64,000 bases of DNA from Bryobacteraceae bacterium (lineage in GTDB: Bacteria > Acidobacteriota > Terriglobia > Bryobacterales > Bryobacteraceae), in contig CBDDIZ010000011.1 of the NCBI GenBank assembly GCA_965229305.1, positions 236-64,235 of the forward strand, read 5' to 3'. The notes under the pieces were generated by a model. The model made no database searches and was not told the origin of the DNA. It saw only the letters and a list, made by a program, of their open reading frames with translations. This document shows positions 27,201 to 57,089 of the stretch, one piece after another; position 1 is the first letter of the stretch; each line of letters starts with the position of its first letter. Made by a program: the position numbers and the translations under genes.

Positions 27201-27621
27201 TGGCGTCTTCGGCGGCTGGTCGCTCAGCGGTCTCTTCTCGATCAACAGCGGCCAGTATCTGCGCTTCGGCGGCTTGCTGGTGAGTGGCGACCCGGCCATC
27301 GACAACCCCACGCGCGACCGCGTCTTCGACACCTCGAAGTTCCAGCGCCTGCCCGCCTTCACCCGCCGTACCAATCCCCTGCAGTACAGCGACGTCAAGT
27401 CGGCCATGTTCAAGAATCTTGACCTCACCCTGGCCAAGAACTTCGTCATCACCGAGCGCCTGAAGTTCGAGCTGCGCATGGAAAGCTACAACGCCACCAA
27501 CAGCTTCAATGGCGACCTGCCCAGCACCGCTTTCGGCACCTCCGCCTTCGGCGCCGTCACCGCGCAGCGCCCGGGTTATCTGGGCCGGCAATTCCAATAC
27601 AGCGGCCGCTTTACTTGGTAG
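24202..27621 (+). CDS. TonB-dependent receptor with carboxypeptidase-regulatory-like domain (1139 aa)
   Basis: Signal peptide ..SVSIHAQD. GLVTDSSQAAIAGAEVVLLNTATN..SGQYLFDFVIAGEYSVTVESTGFR. C-terminal GRFTW. Confidence 0.9.
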   Translation: MNLCCRGAALLLLASVSIHAQDVRARVQGLVTDSSQAAIAGAEVVLLNTATNVAATTKTNASGQYLFDFVIAGEYSVTVESTGFRKFVQKNIVVQSRGDLTVDARLELGATTEAITVEGAPVSVQFNSSTVGLTIDKKMTNELPIINRNPFLLAQLNPASVLRSTTEQSPYHHWASTQIDVGGNTSTKNDVVVDGSPNMASEKSSYTPTMDAVQEVSVQQNAVDAEFGHSAGGIITVQMKSGTNAFHGTGYYLGRNPSINAVADQITRRANLTRNHIWGGTLGSPIVRNKIFNFAAYEEWRSQDPRSVAFTMPTDLERTGDFSKSLNARGGLRAIYNPFTTVLNADGTASRMPYPGNIIPVSQQDPVGRRVMNDIWKPNLAGTGSDLVNNYRAGFAERVKYWNLSDRVDWNASDKLKVFGRYSMFKTFVTQDNYANSVAVQPNGSERHAWTTVGDVVYTLSASTVLNVRGGYNRIFDSFAVAESQITSAKLTEILGGDWHTAYSKNDPALYYPGFTVRRGPSAATLGRTGYWYQDPDTYNLQSKVSHARGRHYFKVGGEWRLQRVVAVRPRPISFDIRQELTASTFLNPDLNVSGDAWATLLVGALDTNTLIQSLPVQRHRNRFYSLYFHDDIKVSQRLTINVGLRYEYESPLVDPENRLSRYLDLNSPIPEFQGSRAPVIPAAATALRKESPIFNGAWIFTDDANRGSWNAQKLLFMPRLGLAYRLNDKSSLRVGYARYLVPASLTDGLDVLGSVFYPGFEATSRGLPLLSGVPQSTLRNPFPGGLVPVSGKSFGRYTDLGGAPIFYNQDFQVGVNDRYNISLQRALPGQMVVDATYFFNIGRNAPVTRNLNQVDPRIGYERGAATAANVANPFFNLLPAEQMPGQLRTQSSVPISQLLRLYPQYGDIQQRLKGIGKSRYQALQIQVQRPFVKGFNMVVGYNYNRERNHEYYDELDNYLNNLTFQPAVNPRHRLTGASIYQLPFGKGRTFMSNANRLVDGVFGGWSLSGLFSINSGQYLRFGGLLVSGDPAIDNPTRDRVFDTSKFQRLPAFTRRTNPLQYSDVKSAMFKNLDLTLAKNFVITERLKFELRMESYNATNSFNGDLPSTAFGTSAFGAVTAQRPGYLGRQFQYSGRFTW

Positions 27622-28481
27622 CAGCGCTGTACTTAGTCCTGGTGGCGCAGGATTTCGCCGGAACGAAAGCCTGCGCCGCCTGTCACGCCGAGATCGTGCA
27701 GAAACAGCAGCGCACTCATCATGCCCGCGCCCTTCAGCGCGGTGCTGACGGCCGTTGGGCCTTTGGCGCCGGCGCCCAGGCCATCACCTACGTCTCGCCC
27801 GCGGACGAAGACCATTACGTCGAACACGGCCTCTCCTGGTACCGCAAGACTCAGGCGCTCGCCCTCACGCCCGGCCACCCCAACGCGGCCGGCGTTCGCT
27901 ATCCCACCTTCAGCCCCGATGCCAACATCCTGCGTTGCTTTCAGTGCCATTCCACCGGCCAACTCACTTTGACGCCTCAGCGGACAGTGCAGCCCGCTGA
28001 AGAGGGCGTCCGCTGCGAGACCTGCCACGGACCCGGCCGCGCCCACGCTGCCGCACCCTCCGCCGCCAACATCGGTAACCCGCGTCGCCTCACCGCCGCC
28101 CAGATCAACGAGACCTGCGGCGAGTGCCATCGCATGCCTCCCGCGAAAGGCGTTGCGACCAACTTCGAGAACCCCTGGAACGTACGTCACCAGCCCGTCT
28201 ATTTCAGTCAAAGCGCGTGCTTCCTGAAAAGCGGCGGACGCCTCTCCTGCCTCACCTGCCACAACCCCCACGAAGACACGCCCGTCGACGCGCAATGCGC
28301 CTCGTGTCATCCGCAGGCGAAGCACCGCACGCCCGTCTCCGGTACGTGCGTCTCCTGTCACATGCCGGTGGTGAAGCCTTCTGACTTACTCGGCTTTGCG
28401 AATCATTGGATCGGCGTTTATCGCTCAACGGGTCCCGGCGCGAATCTGCTCCGCCCGCGCCCGCAAGGGAGCGGCCGTTGA
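27615..28481 (+). CDS. Heptahaem c-type cytochrome
   Basis: Seven CXXCH motifs: CAACH, CFQCH, CETCH, CGECH, CLTCH, CASCH, CVSCH. TTG start overlaps the receptor stop codon, so the start is uncertain. Confidence 0.8.
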   Translation: MVAALYLVLVAQDFAGTKACAACHAEIVQKQQRTHHARALQRGADGRWAFGAGAQAITYVSPADEDHYVEHGLSWYRKTQALALTPGHPNAAGVRYPTFSPDANILRCFQCHSTGQLTLTPQRTVQPAEEGVRCETCHGPGRAHAAAPSAANIGNPRRLTAAQINETCGECHRMPPAKGVATNFENPWNVRHQPVYFSQSACFLKSGGRLSCLTCHNPHEDTPVDAQCASCHPQAKHRTPVSGTCVSCHMPVVKPSDLLGFANHWIGVYRSTGPGANLLRPRPQGSGR

Positions 28482-29201: not shown

Positions 29202-31061
29202 ATGCACCGCCGACAGTTTCTAAAGCACACCGCTGGGGCCGCCGTTTTGTCGACGGCGGCGGCTCAGGCCGCGCCCAACCCGCGCGCGAAAGAATGGAAT
29301 CACTATGGCGGCGACGCTGGCGCCTCCCGCTATTCGCCTTGCGCCAAGATCACCAAGGCGAACGTCGCGAAGCTCAAAGTCGCCTGGACCCATCGCACCG
29401 GCGACGCCAGCTTGCGCCCCGCCACCGTCATCGAATGCACGCCCATTGTCGTCGATGGCGTCATGTATCTCTCCACCGCGCGCAACAAAGTGCAGGCTCT
29501 CGAGGCCGCCACCGGCAAACTCCTCTGGACCTTCGATCCCGGCCAGGGCGGCAGTGCCGGCTCGCGCCGCGCCCCCGGCATCTCGCGCGCCGTCACTTAC
29601 TGGGAATCCGGCGACGACCAACGCCTCTTCCACGCCTATCGTGATCAGCTTTGGGCCATCAACGCGAAGACCGGTCAGCCGGTCGCCTCCTTCGGCAAGG
29701 GCGGCATGATCGACCTCAAGCAGGACTTCGATCACGATATGTCGAAGCTCACCTTCAAGCATTCGAGCCCCGTGGTCGTCTACCGCAACGTCGTCATCAC
29801 CGGCGGCGGTGGCGGCGAAGGACCCTACCCCGAAGCTCCCGGCCACATCCGCGGCTTCGACGCCCTCACCGGCCAGCGCCTCTGGATCTTCCACACCGTT
29901 CCGAAGCCCGGCGAGTTCGGCCACGACACCTGGAGCGGCGATTCCTGGCAGTACACCGGCGGCACCAACAACTGGGGCGGCATGAGCGTCGACGAGAAAC
30001 GCGGCGTCGTCTACGCCGGCATCGGCTCGCCCAGCTTCGACTATTGGGGCGGCAATCGCCAGGGCAACAACCTCTTCGGCAACTGCGTCCTCGCACTCGA
30101 TGCGCTCACCGGTCAACGCAAGTGGCACTACCAGATCGTGCACCACGACGTCTGGGATTACGACATGCCCGCGCAGCCGGCCCTGGTTACCATCAAGCGC
30201 AATGGCAAAACGATCGATGCCGTCGTGCAGCCCACCAAGCAGTCCTATCTGTACTTCCTCGACCGCGATACAGGCCAGCCCATCTACGGCGTGGAGGAGC
30301 GTCCCGCACCTGCCGCCACCATGCCCGGTGAAGTCCTCTCCAAGACGCAGCCCCATCCGCTCAAGCCGCCGCCGCTTTCTCGCCAGGGCTTCCGCGCCGA
30401 GTGGATCACCGATATCAGCCCCGAAGCGCACGAGCACGTGAAGGCGCAGGTAGAGAAAGTCTCTTACGGCGATCTCTTCCACCCCGCCCCGATGACCGGC
30501 GGCATTGTTCATCCTGGCTTCCGCGGGGGCATGCTCTGGGGCGGCTGCAGCTTCGATCCCAAACGCAATCGCCTCTTCGCCAACTCGGACGAAGCCACCA
30601 ACGTCATCAGCTTCAAAGAAGCCGGCCCCGGCATGAACGTCCGCTTCGCTCTCGCGCAGCGCGCCGAGTTGGTCGACCACGAGGGTTACCCCGGCATCAA
30701 GCCGCCGTGGGGCTACCTCACGGCGGTCGATGCCAACAAGGGCGAGTTCGCCTGGCGCGTCGTCAATGGCGAGTTCCCCGAGCTCAAGAAGCGAGGCCTC
30801 AAGAAGACCGGCACTCCGTCCAACGGCGGTAGCATCTGCACGGCGGGCGGCGTCGTCTTCATGGCGGGCACCTTCGACAAGATGATGCGCGCGTTTGACT
30901 CCGATACCGGCGCCATCCTTTGGGAGTACGAACTGCCCGAATGTGGCTTCGCCACGCCCGCCACCTACGAGGTCAACGGCCGGCAGTTCGTCGTCATCGC
31001 CGCCGGAGGTGGTAGAAAGGGATCGAAGGCGCATGATGAGTTTGTGGCGTTCTCCCTCTAA
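29202..31061 (+). CDS. Periplasmic PQQ-dependent dehydrogenase (quinoprotein, 8-bladed propeller)
   Basis: Tat signal RRQFLKHTAGAAVLSTAAAQA. N-terminal WNHYGGDAGASRYSP..ITKANVAKLKVAW is typical of PQQ dehydrogenases. W-rich propeller repeats. Confidence 0.85.
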   Translation: MHRRQFLKHTAGAAVLSTAAAQAAPNPRAKEWNHYGGDAGASRYSPCAKITKANVAKLKVAWTHRTGDASLRPATVIECTPIVVDGVMYLSTARNKVQALEAATGKLLWTFDPGQGGSAGSRRAPGISRAVTYWESGDDQRLFHAYRDQLWAINAKTGQPVASFGKGGMIDLKQDFDHDMSKLTFKHSSPVVVYRNVVITGGGGGEGPYPEAPGHIRGFDALTGQRLWIFHTVPKPGEFGHDTWSGDSWQYTGGTNNWGGMSVDEKRGVVYAGIGSPSFDYWGGNRQGNNLFGNCVLALDALTGQRKWHYQIVHHDVWDYDMPAQPALVTIKRNGKTIDAVVQPTKQSYLYFLDRDTGQPIYGVEERPAPAATMPGEVLSKTQPHPLKPPPLSRQGFRAEWITDISPEAHEHVKAQVEKVSYGDLFHPAPMTGGIVHPGFRGGMLWGGCSFDPKRNRLFANSDEATNVISFKEAGPGMNVRFALAQRAELVDHEGYPGIKPPWGYLTAVDANKGEFAWRVVNGEFPELKKRGLKKTGTPSNGGSICTAGGVVFMAGTFDKMMRAFDSDTGAILWEYELPECGFATPATYEVNGRQFVVIAAGGGRKGSKAHDEFVAFSL

Positions 31062-35817: not shown

Positions 35818-36582
35818 ATGAAGCAGTTTTTGACTCTGGGGTTCCTGACCGTTGCTGCCGCCGCCTGGCTGCCGGCTCAGCGAGGCATGGTGAACATTAC
35901 GCCCCGCATTACCGGCGGGGATTCCGTCAACGGGAAATGCATTATCCGCATCATGGTCGATGACACGGTGAACGTGCGCATCGGCAACGGCCAAATCCGC
36001 GTGGAGACGCTCGCCGGCCAGCCCAGCCGTGATGACGGCACCGAGTGCAGTTCGGTCCTCCGCAACGGACGCAACCTCTCCGACTTCCGCTTCCGCGGCA
36101 TCGACGGCCGTGGCGAGGTCCGCCTCCAATCGGACCCCCGCAATGACCCGCGCGGCGAAGCCGTCGTCTACATTCGGGACTCCAAGGGCGGCGACGAAGG
36201 CTACACCTTCGAAGTCAGCTGGTCCGGTGACAACGGGCAGTTCAACAACAGCGGCAACGGCGGCTTCTTTGGCAATCGCCCCGGCAACAACAATGGCTAT
36301 AACAACGGCTATAACAATGGCCAATACAATAGCGGCAACGCCAGCTATGACCGGGCGGTGAACTCCTGCATGGATCGCGTGCGCAATCAGATTCAGCGCG
36401 ACTATCGGGCGAACAACATCACGTTCGACAACATCAACACAGACAATGGCAACGGCCGCCGCGACCGCGTTTCGGGCACCGCTCGCACCGATAGCGGTCG
36501 CCGCGGTGATCGTTTCCGTTTCGACTGCGACGTCAACCTGAACAACGGCAACGTGCGCAACGTCAACATCAGCCGCAACTAA
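35818..36582 (+). CDS. Secreted hypothetical protein with Asn/Gly/Tyr-rich linker
   Basis: Signal peptide. Two globular halves are joined by GQFNNSGNGGFFGNRPGNNNGYNNGYNNGQYNSGN. Confidence 0.55.
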   Translation: MKQFLTLGFLTVAAAAWLPAQRGMVNITPRITGGDSVNGKCIIRIMVDDTVNVRIGNGQIRVETLAGQPSRDDGTECSSVLRNGRNLSDFRFRGIDGRGEVRLQSDPRNDPRGEAVVYIRDSKGGDEGYTFEVSWSGDNGQFNNSGNGGFFGNRPGNNNGYNNGYNNGQYNSGNASYDRAVNSCMDRVRNQIQRDYRANNITFDNINTDNGNGRRDRVSGTARTDSGRRGDRFRFDCDVNLNNGNVRNVNISRN

Positions 36583-37592
36583 GCCAACTTCGCGACGCGG
36601 CCGCTGTTGGCCGCGTCGCGAGTCTTTAGGCAGATCTCGTTCATCCGCCAGATGTCTTCGGTGGTGATCGGGTCGGGCCCGTTTAGATAGAGGGCTCGCA
36701 AAAATTCGACTAACAGGCTTTGCGGCGCCGGCAAAGGGTGAATCACCTTGGTCGGCGCTTCGTACGTCATCAGGGTCACGCCCGTCGACGCTTGATACTC
36801 CACCACGCCTTTGGTCCCGGCCAGCCGCAGGCGGTCGTCTTCATGCGTCGCAGCTCCGGTCGGCCTCAGATAATCCATCCGCAGTGTGGCCACGCCACCG
36901 TTATCGAGGTGAAACAGAGCTGCCGCCGTGTTCTCCCGATCGCCCAATTCCGGCCAACCCAACCGCGCCTGGAATGCCGCGGCCGCCACGAACTCCCGCC
37001 CGCTCGTCCACCGCATGAGATCCGCCATGTGGATCCCCACCCACGGGATCGTCCCGCCGTAGCTCGCTGCCTTGTTGCGCCACTTCACGTCGGGAGCCGG
37101 CTTATATGACTTCTGCCCGCCGATCTGCGCAACCTCCCCGATTTGCCCCGACGCCACAATATGCTTCAATGCCTGAAAGTGCGGCGTAAAGCGCAACGGG
37201 AGCATCATGGTGTGCCGCACCCGGCTCTTTTCCACTGCTTGGCGGCACTTCACCAGATCCGTCATCTTGATCGCATACGGCTTTTCGGCAATGAAGTTCA
37301 AGCCGCGTTCCGCACAGGCCATAATGGCCGCCGCCCGCGCCCCGTTGTCATTGCAAACCGCGACGATGTCGGGCTTCTCCCGGTCCAGCACCGGCCGATA
37401 GTCCTCACCGCTGTTGACTTGTGCCACAATCTGTAGCTCCGGCAAAGATTTTGCCGGCGTTGTGACCTCCGCGGTATGGCCTTCTTTGCCAATAATGACG
37501 ATACGTACCTTGCGGGGTAGGTGCAGTGGCTCGGCGGCAGCGGAGGCTGCCGCGAACATCACCGCCCGGCGGCTGAGACTTGTCCTCACCAT
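36579..37592 (-). CDS. Gfo/Idh/MocA-family oxidoreductase with Tat-like signal
   Basis: N-terminal SRRAVMFAAASAAA followed by Rossmann segment VRIVIIGKEGH. Typical family length (337 aa). Confidence 0.8.
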   Translation of the reverse strand: MVRTSLSRRAVMFAAASAAAEPLHLPRKVRIVIIGKEGHTAEVTTPAKSLPELQIVAQVNSGEDYRPVLDREKPDIVAVCNDNGARAAAIMACAERGLNFIAEKPYAIKMTDLVKCRQAVEKSRVRHTMMLPLRFTPHFQALKHIVASGQIGEVAQIGGQKSYKPAPDVKWRNKAASYGGTIPWVGIHMADLMRWTSGREFVAAAAFQARLGWPELGDRENTAAALFHLDNGGVATLRMDYLRPTGAATHEDDRLRLAGTKGVVEYQASTGVTLMTYEAPTKVIHPLPAPQSLLVEFLRALYLNGPDPITTEDIWRMNEICLKTRDAANSGRVAKLA

Positions 37593-37625: not shown

Positions 37626-38225
37626 ATGAGTAACCAACGCCTGGCCTGCATCTTGCTTGGAGCTTGGCTGTGTGGAAGTTTGTTAATTGCTTGCATTGCT
37701 TTTGGCAACTTCAAGGTGGCGGACCGGATGCTGATGAGCCCGTCGCTGCCCGGCGCCGCGAAAGCCATCCAGACCCTCGGCACGGTTGATGCCCGTTATC
37801 TGTTGCGGCATGAAGTCGGCGAAATCAATCGCACCATCTTCGAGTACTGGGGCTTGGCCCAGTTGGCCTTTGGCGTCATCCTGTTTTTCCTGCTGTTGTT
37901 CGGCACCACGGTGAACTACAAGCTCTTGGCGATCTCCGCGGTGATGGTGCTGCTGGTCGGCATCAATCAGTTCGCCGTTCTGCCCAGCATCATCGGGCTG
38001 GGCCGCGCGGTCGAGTTCAGCGACATCCCTAAGTTTCCGTCGCAACGGCAGCAACTGGCCGCCATGCAAACGGTTTACACCGGCTTTGAATGTTTGAAGG
38101 CGCTCACCGGCCTTGGGCTCGCCGTGCTACTGGTCTTTTCCCGCGCGGATCGGAAACGCCGCGGACGCCGTGCCTCCGACGTCAACTCGATCGATCACGC
38201 CGATTACAGCCATATCAATCGGTGA
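37626..38225 (+). CDS. Hypothetical integral membrane protein (~199 aa)
   Basis: ATG at 37626. Four predicted hydrophobic helices. 3' end overlaps the last BMC-P gene convergently. Confidence 0.55.
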   Translation: MSNQRLACILLGAWLCGSLLIACIAFGNFKVADRMLMSPSLPGAAKAIQTLGTVDARYLLRHEVGEINRTIFEYWGLAQLAFGVILFFLLLFGTTVNYKLLAISAVMVLLVGINQFAVLPSIIGLGRAVEFSDIPKFPSQRQQLAAMQTVYTGFECLKALTGLGLAVLLVFSRADRKRRGRRASDVNSIDHADYSHINR

Positions 38226-38441
38226 GTTGGGCCGGCCCACGCTGGTCATCGCACTATAGCCTTCGGTCGTCAGCAGCACGCATTCCCCGATTCCGACGCC
38301 GATCGCATCGAAGGCGATCACCGCGTTCCCCTTATCGGATCCGTCCAGCTCCAGTGGCTGCACCACCAGCGCCGTACACCCCTGGTGACTGGCATGCTTC
38401 TCCGTGGCCACCATCTCGCCGATTACGCGCGCAATTAGCAT
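38127..38441 (-). CDS. Bacterial microcompartment vertex protein BMC-P (EutN/CcmL family), paralog 3
   Basis: MLIARVIGEMVATEK...DMAVIGVIDRV matches the EutN/CcmL pattern, with a ~17-aa C-terminal tail. Confidence 0.85.
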   Translation of the reverse strand: MLIARVIGEMVATEKHASHQGCTALVVQPLELDGSDKGNAVIAFDAIGVGIGECVLLTTEGYSAMTSVGRPNSPIDMAVIGVIDRVDVGGTASAAFPIRAGKDQ

Positions 38442-38716
38442 CCCGGACGCTCCACGTGCAGCTCATCGACGATTCCCACGATCGTCGCATTCGTGGGAAC
38501 TTCGGTCGGCAGAAACGGAAAGCTCGATTCTTTCCCGCCGCACCAGTAAATCAATTCGCCGGCGCCTACGGACCCCGTGCCGTCCGTACAGATGATCTGC
38601 TTGCCGGTGGGTTTGAGTTCGGTCGTCATCGGCTGCACCACCATCAGGCGTTGCGCCGTCAGCCCAGGATCCTTCACCGTGGCCCACACCCGGCCCACCA
38701 CGCGCCCCACTTGCAT
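38435..38716 (-). CDS. BMC-P (EutN/CcmL family), paralog 2
   Basis: MQVGRVVGRVWATVKDPGL...ATIVGIVDEL. Confidence 0.85.
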   Translation of the reverse strand: MQVGRVVGRVWATVKDPGLTAQRLMVVQPMTTELKPTGKQIICTDGTGSVGAGELIYWCGGKESSFPFLPTEVPTNATIVGIVDELHVERPGC

Positions 38717-38988
38717 CAGCGTTGATCCAGGTCGACGGTATCGACAATCGCCACGATGGCTTGGTCGACCGGTTTATCCTTGCAGCCTTCCGCCAATCGG
38801 GCCGAACTGCCACCCACCAGCAGCACCTTTTCCCGATTGCCTGCTCCCACCGTATCGACGGCGATCACGTACCCCGCCTCGTCATGTCCTTCCGGCGACA
38901 CCGGCTTGACGATCAGGAGCTTCTGGCCTTCCAGGCGCGGATCCTTGCGCGTGGCCACCACCGTGCCGACGACTCGGGCCAGAATCAA
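38716..38988 (-). CDS. BMC-P (EutN/CcmL family), paralog 1
   Basis: MILARVVGTVVATRKDPRLEGQKLLIV...DQAIVAIVDTV. Confidence 0.9.
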   Translation of the reverse strand: MILARVVGTVVATRKDPRLEGQKLLIVKPVSPEGHDEAGYVIAVDTVGAGNREKVLLVGGSSARLAEGCKDKPVDQAIVAIVDTVDLDQR

Positions 38989-39001
38989 GAGCTTCCCTCG
39001 C

Positions 39002-39286
39002 TTACTTGCTCGCCTTGCCGATCGGCAGGACGTCTTCCAGGCTCGGATGCGGCCGCGGAATCACGTGGACAGCGATCAGTTCGCCCACCCGGCGCGCCGC
39101 GGCGGCGCCCGCGTCCGTGGCCGCGCGCACCGCGGCCACATCGCCGCGCACCAGCGCCGTCACATATCCGGAACCGATCTTTTCCCAGCCCACCAAGTTC
39201 ACCTTAGCGGCCTTCACCATCGCGTCGGCGGCTTCAATCATCGCCACCATGCCGCGGGTTTCCACCATACCGAGTGCTTCACCCAT
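39002..39286 (-). CDS. BMC-H hexameric shell protein (Pfam00936, PduA/EutM/CcmK-like)
   Basis: [57 protein letters not shown]. Confidence 0.9.
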
Positions 39287-39315
39287 TGCGTTTCGTCTTC
39301 TCCAGCCCTCTTATG

Positions 39316-40086
39316 CTACCGCGCTTTCAGAGCTTCATCCACCAAGGCAATCAGTTCTTCGCGCGTCACATAAAATCGTTCGCCGTCGCTCGGAAGTTCT
39401 TCCGCCACCACCGGACAGCCCGGCGCCGCCGAGTTCCGCGACGCGATGCCGTAGCGGGATCTGGCGTCGAACAGCTTGTCCACTTCTTCGCGCGGCAAGA
39501 GCTTCGCGCCGCCCAGCAACTCCGCCACCAGCGTAATCCGCGACGAATGCTCTACGGTCTCCATCAGGTAGTACGCCTTCCAGACGTCCGTCCCGTAGCA
39601 CGTGACGCCGTGATTCCCCAACAGGATCGCGTCGTAGTTGGGGATCAGCGGCAGCATCGGCTTCAGCAGCTCTTCGGTGCCCGGCAAACCGTAAGCGGCC
39701 AGAGGTACACACCCCAGCGCCACAATCACTTCCGGCAGAATCGCCTGATTCAGGCTCCGGCCCGCCGCCGCAAAACCCGTCCCGATTGGCGGATGACAAT
39801 GCACCACGGCCTGGATGTCCGGCCGCAGCCGGTAGATCGCCAGGTGCATGTTGATCTCGCTGGTCCGCTCCCGGGTTCCGGCCACCTTTTTGCCTTCCGG
39901 ATTCACAATGATCAGGTCATCGGGCTTCATCCGGCCCTTGCTGATCCCCGTGGGCGTACACAGGATCCGTTCGGCGTCCAGCCGGATGCTGATGTTGCCG
40001 TCATTGGACGCAACCCAGCCTTTCGTCCAGCAAAGCCGCCCAATCTCGACAATATCTTCGCGGAGTTCCGCTTCAGTTTTGGCCAT
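39316..40086 (-). CDS. Class II aldolase/adducin-family protein (fuculose/rhamnulose-1-P aldolase-like) with ~40-aa C-terminal extension
   Basis: GNISIRL.., metal-ligand context VVHCHPPIGTGFAAAG, LLGNHGVTCYG. Extra C-terminus ends in TREELIALVDEALKAR. Confidence 0.9.
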   Translation of the reverse strand: MAKTEAELREDIVEIGRLCWTKGWVASNDGNISIRLDAERILCTPTGISKGRMKPDDLIIVNPEGKKVAGTRERTSEINMHLAIYRLRPDIQAVVHCHPPIGTGFAAAGRSLNQAILPEVIVALGCVPLAAYGLPGTEELLKPMLPLIPNYDAILLGNHGVTCYGTDVWKAYYLMETVEHSSRITLVAELLGGAKLLPREEVDKLFDARSRYGIASRNSAAPGCPVVAEELPSDGERFYVTREELIALVDEALKAR

Positions 40087-40126
40087 TCGTGCGCAGGAAA
40101 CCTAATTCTAGCAATAGAATAGGAAA

Positions 40127-40969
40127 GTGGAGAATCGTCCCATGTGCCCGAACTGCCGGGCCCTGCTTTCAACCGCGGACCGTGTCTGCCCCTACTGCGA
40201 GTTTCAGATCCAGCCCCCTCTGCCCCCCGTGCCGCGCCGCCGGGCCGAGGCCACCGAAGTCCTCGGCGGCTTCATTCCGCAGGACCGTTTCGTTACCTTC
40301 ATCATCCTCACCATCAACGTCGCGCTTTACTTAGCCTGCTCCCTGATGAATCCCGACGGCACCGCCTTCGGCGACATGAGCACGCGCGTTCTGATGTTGT
40401 TCGGCGCCAAGCGCGGCGATTTCATCCTGGAGAACGGACAATGGTTCCGCCTGGTCACCGCCGGCTTCCTGCATGGCGGCCTTCTGCACCTGCTGATGAA
40501 CTCCTGGGCCCTCCTCGACGTCGGCTCCTTCGTCGAACGCACCTTCGGCATCTGGCGCTACCTCGCCATCTACTTTGCCTCCACCGTCGGCGGCTTCTAC
40601 CTCAGCGCCAAAATGTCCTACTACGTCCCCTCGGTCGGCTCTTCCGCCGGCATCTTCGGCCTCATCGGCTCCATGATTGCCCTCGGCCTCATCGACCGTT
40701 CTGCCATGGGAGAAGAAATTAAACAACAAGCCATCCGTTGGGCTATGTACGGCCTGCTGATGGGCCTGCTACCATTCAATGTCGACAACGCCGCGCACGT
40801 CGGTGGTCTCTTCACGGGTCTGGTAGTCACTTGGGCTGCCGGCTTCCCCTCGGCCTTCATGAACTGGAAGGAACGTCTGTGGCAGGTGCTGGGCTCGCTC
40901 AGCCTCATCCTCACCGGCCTTTCGTTCCTGCGTTGGTATTGGTGGTTCGCGAGTCTTCAGTCGCAGTGA
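40127..40969 (+). CDS. Rhomboid-family intramembrane serine protease with N-terminal zinc ribbon
   Basis: CPNC..CPYC; GFLHGGLLHLLMNSWAL; catalytic GSSAGIFGLIG; AHVGGLFTG. Confidence 0.85.
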   Translation: MENRPMCPNCRALLSTADRVCPYCEFQIQPPLPPVPRRRAEATEVLGGFIPQDRFVTFIILTINVALYLACSLMNPDGTAFGDMSTRVLMLFGAKRGDFILENGQWFRLVTAGFLHGGLLHLLMNSWALLDVGSFVERTFGIWRYLAIYFASTVGGFYLSAKMSYYVPSVGSSAGIFGLIGSMIALGLIDRSAMGEEIKQQAIRWAMYGLLMGLLPFNVDNAAHVGGLFTGLVVTWAAGFPSAFMNWKERLWQVLGSLSLILTGLSFLRWYWWFASLQSQ

Positions 40970-45156: not shown

Positions 45157-46386
45157 TTGACGCCCAAGGCCACATTCCGCCTGGTGGCCTGTTTCATCGG
45201 GCTTCTGCCGCTGCTGGCCATCGATGACCTGCACCCGGCCGTTCGCGCTGGCGATCTGGAGAAGGTTCGCGCCTTGCTCAAGGCCGGTGCGAACGTCAAC
45301 ACCCGGGACTCGCTCGGGGGCACGCCTCTGCACGACGCCGCCTGGGCCGGCGACCTCGACATGGTCGACCTTCTGCTCGACGCCCACGCCGACCCCAATG
45401 CTGCCCACAGCGAAGGCGGCTCCTCGCCCCTCCACTACGCCATCCTCACCAACCACCTCGACGTCGCCCGCCGCCTCCTCGAACGCGGCGCCAACCCCAA
45501 GCAGAGATACCGCGGCGGATCCACCGCCCTTCACCTTGCCGCCAGTCGCGGCCACACCGAAATCGTTCTGCTCCTGCTCCAGGGTGGTGTGCCGGTCAAC
45601 GTCGCCGATGGCACCGGCTCCACCGCGCTCGACGAAGCCGCCTGGCGCGGCCACACCGAAATCGTCCGGTTGCTGCTCAAACGCGGCGCCAACCCCAAGG
45701 TAAAGAACACCGAAACCGGGTCCACGCCCCTTCACGAGGCCGCCGTCAAAGGCCACACCGAAATCGTCGCGCTCCTCCTCGATGCCGGCGCCGAACTCAC
45801 CGCCAAGGATCTCTCCGGCTCTACCGCCCTCGACGAGGCTATCCGTCATCAACACACCAAAGTCGTCGATCTGCTGATTCAGCGCGGGGCCAAGATCACC
45901 GGAGCCACCGGCAACGATGCGCTCAAACAGCTCGAACAAGCCGTCCTGCGCGGCCAGGGCGACATCGTCACCCTCCTCCTGGACCGCGGCGCCAGCGCTG
46001 ACTCCCGCACCTCCTCCGGCTCCACCCTGCTTCACGACGCCGCCCTCAAAGGTCACCGCGACGTCGCCGCCTTGCTGCTCGATCGCGGAGCCCACGTCAA
46101 CGCGCGTAACTCTGCCGGCGCCAACGCCTTACACGATGCCGCTCTCGCCGGCCAAGCCGCCACCGCCGCCCTGCTCATCGACCGCGGCGCCGACCCCAAC
46201 GTCACTGACCTCGAAACCGGCGCCACCCCCCTTCATCTCGCCGCCAGTTGGGGACGCCTCGCCGTGGTCGACCTTCTCCTCGAACGCGGCGCCGACCCCC
46301 GCCGGAAGAACCGCTCCGGCCAAACGCCGCTCGACCTGGCCGTCGCCGCCAACCAGGCCGAAGTCGTCGCCCGCCTCCGCCGGTAA
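45157..46386 (+). CDS. Ankyrin-repeat protein (about 11 repeats)
   Basis: Repeated G.TPLH.AA..GH..IV.LLL..GA.. units. TTG start, so the start is uncertain. Confidence 0.85.
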   Translation: MTPKATFRLVACFIGLLPLLAIDDLHPAVRAGDLEKVRALLKAGANVNTRDSLGGTPLHDAAWAGDLDMVDLLLDAHADPNAAHSEGGSSPLHYAILTNHLDVARRLLERGANPKQRYRGGSTALHLAASRGHTEIVLLLLQGGVPVNVADGTGSTALDEAAWRGHTEIVRLLLKRGANPKVKNTETGSTPLHEAAVKGHTEIVALLLDAGAELTAKDLSGSTALDEAIRHQHTKVVDLLIQRGAKITGATGNDALKQLEQAVLRGQGDIVTLLLDRGASADSRTSSGSTLLHDAALKGHRDVAALLLDRGAHVNARNSAGANALHDAALAGQAATAALLIDRGADPNVTDLETGATPLHLAASWGRLAVVDLLLERGADPRRKNRSGQTPLDLAVAANQAEVVARLRR

Positions 46387-46525: not shown

Positions 46526-48271
46526 GTGCGAGGATCCAATTTGGTTGCGATGCGTTCCACGTCCCCCGTTCTGGCCGACGCGGCGCACGTGCTCACGGAC
46601 GAGTTGCTCAGCCATCTCACCAAGCTTGGCCGCGTGCTGACCGGGCAGCTCGATTCGCTCGAGCGCAAGTACCTGGCCCGCCTCGAAAAGGCGAATCACG
46701 ACGCCAAACAGCGTCGCGCGCTCGCGTTCATCACCCTGGGCGCGGCTCTCCGCTTCGTTAAGGCCGGCACGGATCGGCCCCTGTTCGCTTTCCTCGAACA
46801 GGTGGAGTACAACGGCCGCCGGCTCGCCAAGCTCAATCTGCACCCCAGCCTCGTGATGAAGGCTCTTGCTGAATACGACCGTCTGCTCGAAGAGGTGCTC
46901 GGCGAATCCGCCGCCCGCTTCGGCTGGGCCCGCGAACAGATTCACTTCTGTGTCGTCCTCACGCTCAACAACTCGTACTTCCACGTGCGCGAAGCCGAAA
47001 CCGCCGCGCACTCCGAGCTCTTCCACATCGAAATCGAATCACGCAGCCTGAAAGACCTGCTCGGCGGCTCTATGGCGGTGCTCGCCAGCTACTGCCGCGC
47101 CGACATCGCCGAAGTCTATCTGTTCGACGAAGCCAACGAGCGTTGGATGCCGCAGATGGAGCCTGCCCGCCCCACTGCCGCGGCTACCAAGACACGCAAG
47201 CAGGTGGGCAAGCCCTTCTGCACCGTGAACACGCCGGAGGCTCGGCCGCATCCCGGCGTGCTGGACCCGTCCTGGCACGGGCGCTTCGAGACCTGCTGGT
47301 CGATGCCCCTGGTGCTGGGCAAGCGCCTCGCCGGCGTGATGCAGTTCGGTTTCGAGAAGCCTTATGAATGGCTGCCCCGCGAACAGGATCTGCTCGCCCT
47401 GGTCGCCGAACGCTGTCTGCTTGGGGCTGAAAAGGTCAAACTCATGCAGGACCTCGCCGAGAGCGAAGAACAGGTCCGCCAACTTGCCTCCCGCATGTTG
47501 CAGGTCGAAGAAGTGGAGCGCCGGCGCATCAGCCGCGAACTCCACGACGAAACCGGCCAGTCGATGCTCTGCATCCGCCTGCAGCTCGAAATGGCCGAAA
47601 AGATTCTGGAAAGCGCCGCCAACCTTGCGGAGATCGAACCCGGCATTCGCAAGGTGAAAGAGGTGCGCGAGATGACCGAGACCACCATTCTCGAAATCCG
47701 CCGCCTGATTGCCGCCTTGAGCCCCGCCGTGCTCGAGCAGCTCGGTCTCGCCCCCGGTCTGCGCCAATTGGCCAGCCGCTTCCAGCGTGCCCACGGCGCT
47801 CAGATTTATTTGCGCACCGGCCGTCTCGGCCCGGTGCCGAAGCAAACCGAAAGCATCGTGTACCGCCTGGTGCAGGAATGCATTAACAACATCGGCAAAC
47901 ATTCGCACGCCGAGAACGTAAACATTTCCGTCCAATCCGCCGATCACCTCCTACAGTTGAGTGTCGAGGATGACGGCGTTGGATTTTGCGTCGAGGAGGC
48001 GTTTAGTAAACGTGACTCCTACGGATTGGCAGGTCTTCGCGAACGCGTAGCTCTGCTGGGTGGTGTGTGCATTGTGGAGAGCCGCCAGCGGTCGGCTGTG
48101 AAGGCAAGCCCGAACGCGAAGTCCGCCCCGAAGCGGCGGTCGCTCGATCCCCACGACTTGTGGAATACGAGCGCCAGCGGCACCCGGATCCGGATCGAGA
48201 TACCGATCCCTGTCGAAACGGCGGGATTGGCGCGAGATTCAGTGGCTGCGACAACTTGGCAGGCCGGTTAA
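46526..48271 (+). CDS. Sensor histidine kinase (GAF-like + HisKA_3 + HATPase_c), NarL-type partner
   Basis: H-box ISRELHDETGQSM, N-box ECINNIGKHS, VEDDGVGF, GLAGLRERVALLGG. Alternative ATG at 46550. Confidence 0.85.
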   Translation: MRGSNLVAMRSTSPVLADAAHVLTDELLSHLTKLGRVLTGQLDSLERKYLARLEKANHDAKQRRALAFITLGAALRFVKAGTDRPLFAFLEQVEYNGRRLAKLNLHPSLVMKALAEYDRLLEEVLGESAARFGWAREQIHFCVVLTLNNSYFHVREAETAAHSELFHIEIESRSLKDLLGGSMAVLASYCRADIAEVYLFDEANERWMPQMEPARPTAAATKTRKQVGKPFCTVNTPEARPHPGVLDPSWHGRFETCWSMPLVLGKRLAGVMQFGFEKPYEWLPREQDLLALVAERCLLGAEKVKLMQDLAESEEQVRQLASRMLQVEEVERRRISRELHDETGQSMLCIRLQLEMAEKILESAANLAEIEPGIRKVKEVREMTETTILEIRRLIAALSPAVLEQLGLAPGLRQLASRFQRAHGAQIYLRTGRLGPVPKQTESIVYRLVQECINNIGKHSHAENVNISVQSADHLLQLSVEDDGVGFCVEEAFSKRDSYGLAGLRERVALLGGVCIVESRQRSAVKASPNAKSAPKRRSLDPHDLWNTSASGTRIRIEIPIPVETAGLARDSVAATTWQAG

Positions 48272-48307
48272 CCGGGCCGGCGATTCAGAAAGAGAGATTA
48301 AAACAAG

Positions 48308-48973
48308 ATGGCCAAAATTCGAATTCTGTTGGCGGACGACCATACCCTGTTCCGTCAAGGTATTAAAACTCTCATCAATGCCGAAGCGGACATGGAGGTC
48401 GTTGGCGAAGCCGCCAACGGAGGAGACGCTGTCGATAAGGCCGGCGAAGTACGCCCGGACCTCGTCCTGATGGACATCGGCATGCCCGGCCTGTCCAGCT
48501 TCGAGGCGACGCGCCAGATCAAAAAGAATCGGCCCGAAACCAAGGTTTTGCTGCTCACCATGTACGACGACGAGGATTATCTCGTCGAAGGCATGGAAGT
48601 GGGCGCCAGCGGCTACGTCCTCAAGGACAGCCCCACCCAACAACTGGTCGCGGCCATCCGCGACATCTGCCGTGGCGGCAGCTACCTCAGCCCGCGCATG
48701 CTCTCGCAGTTGGTTGACGACTTCCGCACCCGCATCAAGAGCGCGAACCGCCTGCCCCGCTTCGCCACGCTCACCACGCGCGAACGCGAAGTGCTCAAGC
48801 TGCTCGCTGAAGGCAATTCGGTGAAGGAAATCGCCTGCGACCTGAACCTGAGCGTCAAGACCGTTGAAGCTCACAAGTTCAACCTGATGCGCAAGCTCGA
48901 TATCCACAACAAGGCGCAACTGGTGCAGTACGCCATCCAGAAGAAGATCATCAAGATCCCCAACCTCGTCTAG
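48308..48973 (+). CDS. NarL/LuxR-family response regulator
   Basis: Receiver domain (ILLADDH, DLVLMDIGMPG). LuxR HTH (LTTREREVLKLLAEGNSVKEIACDLNLSVKTVEAHKFNLMRKL). Confidence 0.9.
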   Translation: MAKIRILLADDHTLFRQGIKTLINAEADMEVVGEAANGGDAVDKAGEVRPDLVLMDIGMPGLSSFEATRQIKKNRPETKVLLLTMYDDEDYLVEGMEVGASGYVLKDSPTQQLVAAIRDICRGGSYLSPRMLSQLVDDFRTRIKSANRLPRFATLTTREREVLKLLAEGNSVKEIACDLNLSVKTVEAHKFNLMRKLDIHNKAQLVQYAIQKKIIKIPNLV

Positions 48974-51381: not shown

Positions 51382-51577
51382 GGCGGCAAGAACGTCGCCG
51401 ACTTCTGCGACCTGCGCGAAGGTCAGATCGATTGGCCCTGAGATCTACAAAGCCCTCGCCGAGATTGGCTACAAGGGAAGCGCCACTGTCGAACTGGGCC
51501 GCGGCGATAAGGCCAAGCTCACCGAGATCAGCCGGCGCTTTGACCTGATCCTGACTGGCGCTCCGCTCGGCTCGTAA
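51382..51577 (+). pseudogene. Duplicated 3' fragment of the sugar phosphate isomerase gene
   Basis: Near-identical to 49752-49946. I counted about six differences, including a 1-nt insertion at 51439 that creates an in-frame TGA. There is no 5' part of the gene. Confidence 0.8.
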
Positions 51578-52145
51578 GCTCGCGCGCCAGGCAGCCCGTC
51601 ACATTGGCGACAGCGAAACTCACCCCATGCAGGTTTGCCTTCGGCGGCCGCCCCGGAATGGGGCGCGGCCAGCCGCAGGCTTCGTAATTCGGCCCGTAGC
51701 GGTCGCGCGGAATGCGGTCGTCCCAACGCACCGCGATCACTCCCGGCAGCGACCCGGGCAGCGTCTCCGCCGCAGCTATCAGGCGAATGCCTAGTTCCGC
51801 CGCGCGCCGCACCCGTTCGGCGAAGCGCTCGCGATGAGCCTCGTTCGGCGTCCCTAACGACAGGTTGATCAAGTCCACCGGCTGCGCCAGCGCCCAATCG
51901 AGCGCCTCGAGCAGAACGTCGATCGAGGTCACCAACTGCTGATGGAAGATCTTGGCGATGTAGAGCTCGGCGTCGGGCGCCTTCTCGCAAATGGCTCCCG
52001 CCACGGCCGTCCCGTGGCCCAGATAGTCCAGGTAGAAGTCGTCCGCCTCGCCAGGCACAAAGCAACGGCCCGCCACCACCCCCGCGATATGGGGATGCCG
52101 CGGGTTCACCCCGCTATCGATCACCGCTACACGGACTGGCGGCAA
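51528..52145 (-). CDS. qhpE: Small subtilisin-like serine protease, QhpE-type (leader peptidase of the gamma subunit)
   Basis: 205 aa. Triad contexts VAVIDSGVN, LGHGTAVAG, HGVSFAVANVTG. Last gene of the qhp operon. Confidence 0.7.
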   Translation of the reverse strand: MPPVRVAVIDSGVNPRHPHIAGVVAGRCFVPGEADDFYLDYLGHGTAVAGAICEKAPDAELYIAKIFHQQLVTSIDVLLEALDWALAQPVDLINLSLGTPNEAHRERFAERVRRAAELGIRLIAAAETLPGSLPGVIAVRWDDRIPRDRYGPNYEACGWPRPIPGRPPKANLHGVSFAVANVTGCLARELTSRAERQSGSGQSAG

Positions 52146-53752: not shown

Positions 53753-53755
53753 TCT

Positions 53756-55653: not shown

Positions 55654-55660
55654 GCCTGGT

Positions 55661-56725: not shown

Positions 56726-56731
56726 GGTGGT

Positions 56732-57079
56732 TTATGGGAAGACGAGGTCGATGTTGCGCCAGTCTTTGGTGGCGCTGGCGCACTTGGTGGCCCAGTCCGG
56801 GTAGTTGTTGTAATGGTCGGGCACTTGGGCGGGCCAGAAGCAGGTGACGTAGCAGTCGTAAAGGTCGCGTTCGGCGGGCTGGCAGAGACCGGCGGTGCCG
56901 CCGGCGGAATCGACTTCCCAACCGGGCGAAAAGACAATGGAGCAGCCGACGGGATAGTGCGGCCGCGGGGCGGGCGGCCCGTTGCCGCCTTGTTGCAGCG
57001 CGTAGATATCGCCCTGCGAGGCCGCGACGTACTGTTCGATGCGCCGGGCTTTTTTATTGATCGCTTTCAGGTGCTTCAT
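56732..57079 (-). CDS. qhpC: Quinohemoprotein amine dehydrogenase gamma subunit precursor (CTQ- and thioether-crosslinked peptide), 115 aa
   Basis: MKHLKAINKK...GCSIVFSPGWE..GLCQPAERDLYDCYVTCFWPAQVPD. The C-x8-E, C-x5-D and C-x3-C-x-W-x5-D spacing equals the Cys7-Glu16, Cys27-Asp33, Cys37/Trp43 (CTQ) and Cys41-Asp49 pattern recalled for Paracoccus QhpC. Sits between the radical SAM and beta-subunit genes. Confidence 0.8.
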   Translation of the reverse strand: MKHLKAINKKARRIEQYVAASQGDIYALQQGGNGPPAPRPHYPVGCSIVFSPGWEVDSAGGTAGLCQPAERDLYDCYVTCFWPAQVPDHYNNYPDWATKCASATKDWRNIDLVFP

Positions 57080-57089
57080 GCGCGGTGCT

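Follow-up and report, generated by a model that had tools for sequence, protein, structure and literature searches.

A stripped ACI-type shell-and-aldolase cassette in a Bryobacteraceae acidobacterium

Results

A compact microcompartment cassette with five intact genes

A five-gene cassette on the minus strand of a 64-kb stretch of DNA (the whole of which is called the window below) encodes a class II aldolase (ALD1), one bacterial microcompartment (BMC) hexamer protein (BMC-H) and three pentamer proteins (BMC-P1 to BMC-P3), and is a stripped variant of the ACI locus type, without the hydroxyacid dehydrogenase and the small cysteine-containing protein. Judged from its sequence and from related loci, the cassette is probably the shell-and-vertex main locus of a split ACI-type microcompartment. 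It comprises the following features, listed with its two neighbours:

37626-38225, plus strand: c7, a predicted four-TM protein of 199 aa, convergent neighbour of the cassette, with a sub-threshold DUF4149 match (E=6e-4)
38127-38441, minus strand: BMC-P3, 104 aa, PF03319 (E=1.1e-23), start overlapping the P2 stop
38435-38716, minus strand: BMC-P2, 93 aa, PF03319 (E=1.4e-21), start overlapping the P1 stop
38716-38988, minus strand: BMC-P1, 90 aa, TTG start, PF03319 (E=1.3e-29)
39002-39286, minus strand: BMC-H, 94 aa, PF00936 (E=5e-30)
39316-40086, minus strand: aldolase ALD1, 256 aa, PF00596 (E=1.8e-46)
39319-39369, minus strand: C-terminal encapsulation-peptide helix of ALD1, residues 240-256, VTREELIALVDEALKAR
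39370-39447, minus strand: linker between the ALD1 core and the encapsulation peptide, residues 214-239, poorly conserved and indel-prone
40127-40969, plus strand: rhomboid protease, PF01694 (E=5e-31)

The preliminary description had recognized five co-directional, tightly packed genes here, and all five open reading frames were recovered and confirmed with Pfam. From ALD1 onwards, successive genes are separated by 29 nt and 13 nt and then overlap by 1 nt (TGATG) and by 7 nt (ATGCTAA); the cassette is one operon, translationally coupled. Its genes are under strong purifying selection, with dN/dS values of 0.015-0.13 against the closest orthologues (for which dS is saturating) and no higher than 0.21 when a more distant orthologue is compared, and are therefore not pseudogenes; the pseudogenization of the shell genes that had been considered earlier is excluded by the intact reading frames and these low ratios. 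An Rfam search of the 64 kb gave no match. A scan for sigma-70 consensus promoters, which is uninformative for Acidobacteria, returned 0 sites, and the single terminator-like site, inside the rhomboid gene, came from a scan that is likewise uninformative, its yield being below chance expectation.

The host is a Bryobacteraceae acidobacterium: the closest relatives of the aldolase and of BMC-H lie in Bryobacteraceae and Bryobacterales MAGs, the source of the loci in which BMC-H is 95-97% identical, and the named best ALD1 homologues (66-91% identity) are assigned to Bryobacteraceae, Bryobacterales or Acidobacteria. As ALD1 is at most 91% identical to the matches retrieved, the window comes from a different genus or species.

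Shell proteins

BMC-H passes the NCBIfam EutM model (142.6 bits, cut-off 133), carries the canonical edge lysine region (DAMVKAAKV) and a PRPH motif, and has EutM and the Haliangium HO-5815 hexamer (5djb) as its nearest solved shells. Its identity across Acidobacteriota is 83-97%, with dN/dS of 0.015-0.03. The three BMC-P proteins are only 27-40% identical in pairs (P1/P2, 33%; P2/P3, 27%; P1/P3, 40%) and are therefore true paralogues, so that, with three PF03319 matches and one PF00936 match, the initial reading of three different EutN/CcmL pentamer paralogues beside one Pfam00936 hexamer protein holds. Among solved structures, BMC-P1 is nearest to 5v74, the pentamer of the HO shell, and every related locus has an orthologue at its position (56-93% identity); positional orthologues of BMC-P2 and BMC-P3 are 37-83% and 35-78% identical, respectively.

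The aldolase and its C-terminal helix

ALD1 had been described as a fuculose/rhamnulose-phosphate-aldolase-like enzyme. Membership in the class II aldolase family stands (PF00596), but the specific sugar-phosphate name does not: ALD1 reaches no NCBIfam equivalog cut-off, and its top scores (OtnC, 118 bits; FucA, 114 bits) are a tie far below the cut-offs, for which reason the name fuculose or rhamnulose aldolase was rejected. This family also includes decarboxylases, epimerases and dehydratases. Of the solved structures, that of L-fuculose-phosphate aldolase (6btd, E=1.8e-26) comes closest and aligns with residues 8-213. Four residues that are invariant across 29 homologues, E77, H96, H98 and H159, we take to be the catalytic Glu and the three Zn-binding His (FucA numbering), and ALD1 is accordingly predicted to be a catalytically intact class II aldolase.

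Beyond the part aligned with FucA structures lies the linker, which is variable in length (one homologue has a 37-aa insertion), followed by a C-terminal helix whose residues T241, R242, L245 and L248 are invariant in the same 29 homologues. The motif [TS][RY]xEL.xL[IV][DE][DE]A terminates the orthologous aldolase in all three classes of related locus described below. AlphaFold2 (AF2) places a helix at residues 242-255 and gives pLDDT <50 at residues 204-232; the model as a whole is moderate (pLDDT 67, from a shallow alignment) and was used only for the C-terminal helix and the linker. With a hydrophobic moment of 0.51, comparable to those of the encapsulation peptides (EPs) of the PduL/AldDh cassette discussed below, the predicted amphipathic helix on its flexible linker has the form of an encapsulation peptide.

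Neighbours and missing enzymes

The flanking genes agree with the early account, in which a rhomboid protease and a membrane protein border the cassette. The 3' end of c7 overlaps that of BMC-P3 by 99 bp. Regardless of the other flanks, and with aldolase-less loci included, c7 adjoins P3 in 19 of 23 Bryobacterales-type species loci, and its C-terminal motif, (V/I)D(K/H)A(N/D)(H/Y)xH(V/I)(N/D)(R/G), is conserved; whether c7 is a member of the microcompartment system is uncertain.

Aldehyde dehydrogenase (AldDh), PduL, acetate kinase and BMC-T had been noted as missing within 10 kb on either side, an absence that now extends to the full 64 kb. A Pfam scan of most called genes found no PF00171, PF06130, PF00871, PF00389/02826 or second PF00936, and when PduL, BMC-T, AldDh and the hydroxyacid dehydrogenase and small EP protein of ACI were used as tblastn queries against all 64 kb, they matched only genes of the cassette itself. 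The window also has none of the components that accompany aldolase and shell genes in a PVM locus, namely a DeoR regulator, AldDh, phosphotransacylase (PTAC) and acetate kinase. Absent from the window, a PF00171 AldDh is present in members of the family at a distal locus, and for all 23 Bryobacterales-type loci the sequence within 10 kb contains neither AldDh nor PduL.

The cassette recurs across Acidobacteria

Nearly all of the 80 related species loci retrieved keep the order ALD-H-P1-P2-P3, each pentamer being orthologous by position; the loci fall into three classes. Vicinamibacterales loci join the cassette to a 2-hydroxyacid dehydrogenase and a Cys-containing protein of 76 aa whose EP is N-terminal, in exact agreement with Sutter's description of ACI; Acidiferrales/Terriglobia loci consist of the cassette alone; and Bryobacterales loci have the cassette alone between unrelated flanks. 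Aldolase-less H-P-P-P cassettes are abundant in Bryobacterales, which shows the cassette to be above all a shell module, able to take cargo from genes at other sites.

ACI rather than PVM

Checked against the published BMC catalogues, the locus is ACI (Sutter 2021), the same loci having been named 'PVM-like' in Axen 2014; a literature search for work on ACI later than Sutter 2021 found none. In the 2021 catalogue, PVMlike is mostly Firmicutes and PVM is restricted to Planctomycetes and Verrucomicrobia (PMC8217296), and the earlier 'PVM-like' classification is therefore superseded. By its gene content and order, the window cassette matches ACI and not PVM, with a fit to ACI that is incomplete. 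The PVM or PVM-like label of the preliminary description is thus unsupported: the host is acidobacterial, gene order and the aldolase with its C-terminal EP fit ACI, and the window pentamers are nearer to Vicinamibacterales ACI pentamers than to those of PVM-layout loci. Nor is a BMC-P triplet with a class II aldolase a hallmark of PVM, as had been supposed, since ACI and FRAG also have BMC-P triplets and HO pairs BMC-P with an aldolase in a satellite locus (PMC8217296).

Shared with the published ACI type are the acidobacterial host, the PF00596 aldolase with a C-terminal EP, a canonical BMC-H with three different adjacent BMC-P genes, a main locus without AldDh and a gene order identical to that of the Vicinamibacterales loci agreeing with the published account. 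By contrast, the window has no 2-hydroxyacid dehydrogenase (by Pfam, and by tblastn with the Vicinamibacterales protein c12), which is also absent from all Bryobacterales-type and Acidiferrales-type loci, and no small protein of ~80 aa bearing three Cys and an EP at its N-terminus, which Bryobacterales and Acidiferrales loci lack as well; tblastn with the small proteins c14 and c16 matched neither the window nor any of the Bryobacterales-type loci. Likewise missing from the window, and from Bryobacterales and Acidiferrales loci, are the remaining proteins of unknown function that the canonical main locus contains. The host differs too, being Bryobacteraceae, whereas ACI is reported primarily from Acidobacteria subdivisions 4 and 6; Ca. 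Solibacter Ellin6076, of the same family, is typed as ACI (PMC8217296). Finally, in the published ACI AldDh the EP lies near the C-terminus and is accompanied by a 50-aa domain (PMC8217296), whereas in the window's relatives AldDh bears its EP at the N-terminus and belongs to a PduL-T-H-AldDh-aldolase cassette.

The nearest solved structures of BMC-H and BMC-P1 link the cassette to HO, and the ACI aldolase is most similar to HO/MIC3 aldolases (PMC8217296). In HO type I genomes, an aldolase and two BMC-P genes share a satellite locus (PMC8217296). HO, however, is found in Myxococcota and encodes three BMC-T proteins and AldDh at its main locus, and the window locus, with BMC-H and all three BMC-P, itself counts as a main locus by Sutter's definition of at least one H and at least one P (PMC8217296).

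A distal enzyme cassette in relatives

A PduL-BMC-T-BMC-H-AldDh-Aldolase_II cassette occurs in assemblies of Solibacter, Bryobacteraceae and other Acidobacteria, and none of those examined contains a BMC-P gene. The pair formed by AldDh and the second aldolase (ALD2) also occurs as an Acidobacteria-attributed AldDh locus, again without BMC-P. EP-like helices are found at the N-termini of PduL and AldDh and at the C-terminus of ALD2; the Bryobacteraceae AldDh, with its N-terminal EP, groups with PVM. AlcDh, which the metabolosome paradigm sets beside an aldehyde-generating signature enzyme, AldDh and PTAC, was seen in neither the shell cassette nor the distal cassette.

In the PVM pathway, a ketose-1-phosphate is cleaved to DHAP and lactaldehyde, a step followed by AldDh and then PTAC. 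The distal cassette is collinear with the full PVM locus minus pentamers, acetate kinase and DeoR, the PVM core being PduL-H-H-(P)-AldDh-(P)-(P)-aldolase, and the early PVM assignment, which fails for the window cassette, is apt for this distal cassette of its relatives. The likeness of the window itself to PVM, a class II aldolase as signature enzyme with a BMC-P triplet, is common to ACI, HO and FRAG and does not discriminate. Moreover, a PVM-layout locus (L135) holds shell, AldDh, PTAC, acetate kinase and DeoR at one site, whereas the window has only aldolase and shell, and PVM hosts are Planctomycetes and Verrucomicrobia, in contrast to the Bryobacteraceae host here.

S. usitatus, from the same bacterial family as the window, has five BMC loci with three BMC-H, three BMC-T and three BMC-P in total, and one of its aldolase loci, without BMC-P, was proposed to work with the other (PMC4207490). 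Its 'PVM-like' loci share the two-locus logic put forward here, with one aldolase locus carrying BMC-P and the other carrying AldDh without BMC-P; the second, BMC-P-less type was recovered in Solibacter relatives. The co-occurrence of both cassettes in one genome rests on Axen 2014 for S. usitatus (PMC4207490). No single assembly with both was found when accession prefixes (10 cassette aldolases against 10 AldDhs) and sample ids were compared, a comparison that drew on the best 120 matches, in lists centred on different clades, such that a mismatch is not evidence of absence.

Discussion

The preliminary description had left two options, a split locus or a very reduced organelle. The split is the better of the two, given the pentamer-less enzyme cassette of relatives and the presence of both loci in S. 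usitatus (Axen 2014). In a split organelle, BMC-H would build the facets and the three non-redundant BMC-P would form the vertices, while the C-terminal helix of ALD1 would attach the enzyme to the shell's inner surface during assembly. Once enclosed, ALD1 would cleave a ketose-1-phosphate, for which L-fuculose-1-P or L-rhamnulose-1-P are the precedents, to DHAP and a reactive aldehyde that the shell would retain. The aldehyde-consuming half, as relatives and the literature suggest, would be encoded at a distant locus, with EP tags on an acylating AldDh, PduL and a second aldolase, alongside one BMC-T and a second BMC-H. This distal cassette has no pentamer, and the two loci would therefore depend on each other for a closed, functional organelle.

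Alternatively, the cassette could be self-sufficient, with ALD1 as the sole cargo of a shell of BMC-H and BMC-P and with no AldDh or PduL in the genome; such a shell would then enclose one step only, an aldol cleavage or condensation or else one of the decarboxylase or epimerase reactions of the aldolase family. Shells of BMC-H and BMC-P only do close in synthetic HO and carboxysome systems, and the cassette recurs as an autonomous unit with unrelated flanks in three acidobacterial orders. The window holds no partner enzyme, no assembly among the matches compared has both cassettes, and an AldDh satellite is reported in 'most', not all, ACI genomes (PMC8217296). Yet the lack of linkage between the loci reflects a limit of sampling and is not a negative result, the PduL-T-H-AldDh-ALD2 cassette of the same family needs a pentamer from just such a cassette as this one, and the frequency of H-P-P-P versions indicates that the shell module can do without the aldolase. 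Since each characterized aldolase-containing BMC (PVM, GRM5) also couples its aldolase with AldDh, we consider a self-sufficient organelle unlikely.

That a full PVM or PVM-like fucose/rhamnose locus lies elsewhere, with this cassette as its satellite and the shell genes here as redundant paralogues, has considerably less in its favour and is improbable. The aldolase and pentamer triplet do characterize PVM too, the enzyme cassettes of relatives are PVM-related, and the S. usitatus loci fell into the 'PVM-like' cluster of Axen 2014 (PMC4207490); but the catalogued host ranges of PVM and PVMlike do not accommodate a Bryobacteraceae host, and the window pentamers lie on the ACI side. All Acidobacteria-attributed AldDh loci examined were without BMC-P, which would make the window triplet the sole source of pentamers and not a redundant one, and S. 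usitatus has exactly three BMC-P in total (PMC4207490). Least credible of all, and very improbable, is the view that an organelle once present has been lost and left a decaying or silent cassette behind. In its favour, the surroundings have no core enzymes, regulator or BMC-T, and no sigma-70 consensus promoter was detected, by a scan that carries no information for Acidobacteria; against a remnant stand the five intact reading frames, the low dN/dS against close relatives (with dS saturating), the invariance of catalytic and EP residues, and the translational coupling that has been kept.

If the split organelle preferred here is real, the shell cassette of one lineage would serve an enzyme core whose affinity is to a different type, PVM. 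The Bryobacteraceae organelle may thus be a chimera, in which an ACI-lineage shell and vertex cassette serves a PVM-lineage enzyme core that lost its pentamers. A free-standing nano-organelle, with a shell of BMC-H and three BMC-P around one aldolase-family enzyme and no AldDh in the genome, is a slim prospect; if it exists, it would rank as the smallest metabolic BMC in nature, with the ACI shell put to a use other than that of a metabolosome.

The five-gene cassette is common in soil Acidobacteria and its type is already catalogued as ACI; the finding refines the published BMC catalogue for Bryobacterales and overturns nothing known. ACI is nonetheless among the largest BMC types without an experimentally known function, and Acidobacteria are dominant soil bacteria. 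With one hexamer, three pentamers and one EP-tagged enzyme, the five-gene version is approximately the simplest natural kit, which would offer a handle on why BMC-P triplets exist and on the targeting of ACI cargo, as well as a compact chassis for shell engineering.

Organization of the cassette

Open reading frames, Pfam assignments and gene junctions confirm the preliminary description of an aldolase gene packed together with one BMC-H and three BMC-P genes of bacterial microcompartments (BMCs). All five are co-directional on the minus strand (38127–40086), and their Pfam assignments are unambiguous.

Genes of the cassette and its neighbours
36579–37592, GFO/IDH/MocA oxidoreductase
37626–38225 (+), four-transmembrane (4-TM) protein, 199 aa, convergent to the cassette
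38127–38441 (−), BMC-P3, 104 aa (PF03319, E = 1.1e-23)
38435–38716 (−), BMC-P2, 93 aa (PF03319, E = 1.4e-21)
38716–38988 (−), BMC-P1, 90 aa (PF03319, E = 1.3e-29)
39002–39286 (−), BMC-H, 94 aa (PF00936, E = 5e-30)
39316–40086 (−), aldolase ALD1, 256 aa (PF00596, E = 1.8e-46)
40127–40969, rhomboid protease, divergent from the cassette

The first two junctions measure 29 and 13 nt, with a purine-rich stretch ahead of each, and the last two are overlaps (TGATG, then ATGCTAA); such spacings and overlaps typify a single, translationally coupled operon. The edge-lysine and PRPH motifs are present as usual in BMC-H, which also passes the NCBI EutM model, and the three pentamer proteins share only 27–40% pairwise identity. 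The start codons of ALD1 and the rhomboid gene lie just 40 bp apart (40087–40126). Any promoter region used by both must therefore reach into the coding starts, unless one of the two starts has been annotated too far upstream; the interval yielded no sigma-70 consensus.

ALD1 as candidate cargo

The alignment of ALD1 to solved L-fuculose-phosphate aldolases stops at residue 213. Among 29 homologues, the core is conserved as far as RYG213 and a PGCPV motif, followed by a linker of variable length (in one case with a 37-residue insertion) and a terminal segment that is again conserved, ERFYVTREELIALVDEALKAR, with T241, R242, L245 and L248 invariant. An AlphaFold2 model of moderate overall confidence places a helix at 242–255 behind a segment with pLDDT <50; this helix is amphipathic and resembles the terminal helices of BMC enzymes encoded elsewhere in relatives. 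As judged from alignment and model, the C-terminal anatomy is that of a standard BMC encapsulation peptide (EP), from which targeting is predicted. Also invariant in the 29 homologues are E77, which we take to be the catalytic glutamate, and H96, H98 and H159, presumably the three zinc-binding histidines (FucA numbering). Because these catalytic-type residues are retained, ALD1 should be catalytically competent. The substrate could not be named: every NCBIfam equivalog scores far under its cut-off, with 3-oxo-tetronate-4-phosphate decarboxylase and FucA scoring alike.

Other contents of the window

Over the 64 kb, 47 genes were called and most were scanned with Pfam, together with two alternative open reading frames. 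None of those scanned encodes an aldehyde dehydrogenase (AldDh), PduL/PTAC, acetate kinase, BMC-kind alcohol dehydrogenase, 2-hydroxyacid dehydrogenase, DeoR regulator or, beyond the cassette, a further BMC domain. A tblastn search of the whole window with relatives' PduL, BMC-T, AldDh and second aldolase, and with accessory proteins of the catalogued ACI type, matched the cassette alone. The absence of other BMC enzymes, claimed for 10 kb on either side, thus extends, as far as scanned, over the window.

An apparent quinohemoprotein amine dehydrogenase cluster (51528–60412, minus strand), aldehyde-producing and with no obvious BMC tie, also includes a U32 peptidase.

Genes of the amine dehydrogenase cluster
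51528–52145 (−), S8 subtilase, apparently truncated
52127–53752 (−), ABC exporter
55661–56725 (−), beta-propeller-like open reading frame
57090–58613 (−), radical-SAM maturase
58610–60412 (−), alpha subunit, with Qn_am_d and haem-binding domains

A PQQ-dependent alcohol/glucose dehydrogenase (29202–31061, plus strand; PF01011, E = 1e-187) is situated 8 kb away from the cassette, near a multihaem cytochrome c reading frame (27615–28481). An IS110-family transposase (DEDD_Tnp_IS110 and Transposase_20; 22679–23998, minus strand) sits between two of three reading frames of ~1,100 aa, the Pfam-scanned one of which (10515–13835) encodes a CarboxypepD_reg/OMP beta-barrel protein. Nine ankyrin repeats make up nearly the whole of a 409-aa protein (45157–46386, plus strand; E = 1e-82) of a kind unusual for a free-living bacterium, adjoined by a GAF histidine kinase paired with a LuxR response regulator (46526–48973).

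Distribution in relatives

Wherever the best ALD1 homologues (66–91% identity) are named, they belong to Bryobacteraceae and Bryobacterales. Relatives' loci hold the identical five genes in identical order within unrelated surroundings: rhomboid and GFO genes (L001-3), mreBCD and ceramidase (GCA_025056455.1), or transaldolase and M20 peptidase (L092-98). A BMC-H scan with one genome per GTDB species returned 425 relatives; in essentially all of the best 80 of these, tblastn recovered the order ALD-H-P1-P2-P3, each pentamer matching its positional counterpart best.

Clustering of the flanking genes (clusters c) separates three locus classes. Class A (Vicinamibacterales and allies) reads c16-ALD-H-P1-P2-P3-c14-c12, c14 being a protein of 76 aa whose N terminus forms an amphipathic helix and whose tail is Cys-rich, and c12 a 2-hydroxyacid dehydrogenase. 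In class B (Acidiferrales and other Terriglobia), a bare cassette lies between the housekeeping genes gdh and ruvAB. Class C (Bryobacterales), to which the window belongs, is likewise bare, often with a divergent rhomboid gene ahead. The aldolases of classes A and B end in the same terminal motif as ALD1.

In 19 of 23 class C species, aldolase-less ones included, a convergent 4-TM gene follows the cassette. Its family (~195–200 aa; 11889–12488 in L001) has DUF4149 as sole match, below threshold (E = 6e-4), and most members end in (V/I)D(K/H)A(N/D)(H/Y)xH(V/I)(N/D)(R/G); in the window this gene and BMC-P3 overlap by 99 bp at their 3' ends. The rhomboid and membrane-protein neighbours were correctly described, but 'unrelated' may not suit the latter, which, judged by synteny, may be linked to the organelle.

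Four Bryobacterales species loci (L007, L033, L072 and L075) combine H-P1-P2-P3 with the 4-TM gene but contain no aldolase within 10 kb. One aldolase-less variant is abundant in metagenomes, its exact BMC-H being indexed in 191 collection blocks, which indicates that a pure shell cassette is common. In these four loci and in L182-L189, further Bryobacterales loci with BMC-H and the BMC-P triplet yet no aldolase in the surrounding 10 kb, the 4-TM gene is followed by a GAF/sigma-54 activator.

A distal enzyme cassette

With the BMC-associated AldDh of S. usitatus as query (Axen et al. 2014 supplementary alignment, PMC4207490), many proteins 71–97% identical, named Solibacter or Bryobacteraceae, were retrieved. 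Outside the window, their contexts (L086-L091, L099-L110 and L181) reveal a second compact cassette: PduL (PF06130), a BMC-T with two PF00936 domains, BMC-H, AldDh and an Aldolase_II protein of ~350 aa. Like the window-type cassette, it also occurs in unrelated flanks; BMC-P was never present in the contexts examined. EP-like amphipathic helices occur at the N termini of PduL and AldDh and at the C terminus of the second aldolase. Among the sampled loci compared, no single assembly showed both cassettes.

A metagenome scan with a Bryobacteraceae AldDh returned a graded series. At identities of at least 83%, most loci complete enough to judge carry the five-gene distal cassette; at 70–77%, most are bare AldDh-aldolase pairs, one attributed to Bryobacteraceae; and at 69% or less, most complete enough to judge have the PVM layout, PduL-H/T-H-P-AldDh-P-P-aldolase. 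One such locus, L135, was confirmed to encode acetate kinase, DeoR and a PduS/PduT-like pair as well. L111, L117, L120 and L179 are examples of bare AldDh-aldolase pairs that lack shell genes. The distal cassette is collinear with the core of L135, minus pentamers, acetate kinase and DeoR, and given this series it looks like a PVM-type core lacking these components.

Assignment to a BMC type

The ACI type occurs in Acidobacteria only. In its main locus are encoded a PF00596 aldolase with C-terminal EP, a hydroxyacid dehydrogenase, BMC-H, an adjacent BMC-P triplet and three homologue-less proteins, one of them ~80 aa long with three Cys and an EP at its N terminus, the AldDh lying on a satellite locus (Sutter et al. 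2021, PMC8217296). Gene by gene, class A loci fit this description. In common with ACI, the window has the aldolase with its putative EP, BMC-H, the BMC-P triplet and the gene order but, unlike ACI, lacks the hydroxyacid dehydrogenase and small proteins. BMC-T of Ca. Solibacter Ellin6076 (Acid_2257) and Sulfopaludibacter and a Solibacterales BMC-P are labelled ACI in the published trees (PMC8217296), so Bryobacterales systems are already filed there.

The preliminary description had assigned the cassette to the PVM group, reasonably from sequence alone, and Axen et al. 2014 (PMC4207490) named the S. usitatus loci 'PVM-like'. Under the 2021 definitions, PVMlike is mostly Firmicutes, while PVM does not extend beyond Planctomycetes and Verrucomicrobia (PMC8217296); together with the ACI match, these host ranges do not uphold that label. 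The window pentamers are also nearer to those of class A, which places the cassette in the ACI lineage rather than as a displaced piece of a PVM-type core.

Identity of the window pentamers to class A (ACI) and PVM-layout loci
P1: class A 55–66%; PVM layout 30–58%
P2: class A 37–50%; PVM layout 29–35%
P3: class A 35–48%; PVM layout 29–48%

A probable dispersed organelle

The comparisons show an intact operon, conserved as a unit, for a single facet protein, three paralogous vertex proteins and a predicted-competent aldolase with a putative EP. The preliminary description had left two readings, a split locus or a reduced organelle with the aldolase as only cargo; the distal cassettes of relatives favour the former. 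The EP would bring ALD1 into the shell, where it would yield DHAP and a reactive aldehyde; EP-tagged AldDh and PduL from a distant locus, which would also contribute BMC-T and a second BMC-H, would convert the aldehyde to acyl-CoA and then acyl-phosphate. Since the distal locus lacks a pentamer and S. usitatus possesses three BMC-P genes and no more, we infer that the two loci are mutually dependent, and on this analysis the window's genome probably carries a distal locus.

A free-standing organelle containing the aldolase alone would match the enzyme-poor window, and we consider it rather improbable; the aldolase-less H-P-P-P cassettes support the locus as shell module of a dispersed system. 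A full PVM locus with this cassette as its redundant satellite is unlikely, as is a decaying remnant, which the bareness of the cassette might suggest: dN/dS is 0.015–0.13 for all five genes against the closest orthologues (L001 and L006; dS near or above 1), so that selection maintains them, contrary to the pseudogenization earlier raised for the shell genes. The cassette is a new, stripped member of the already catalogued ACI type.
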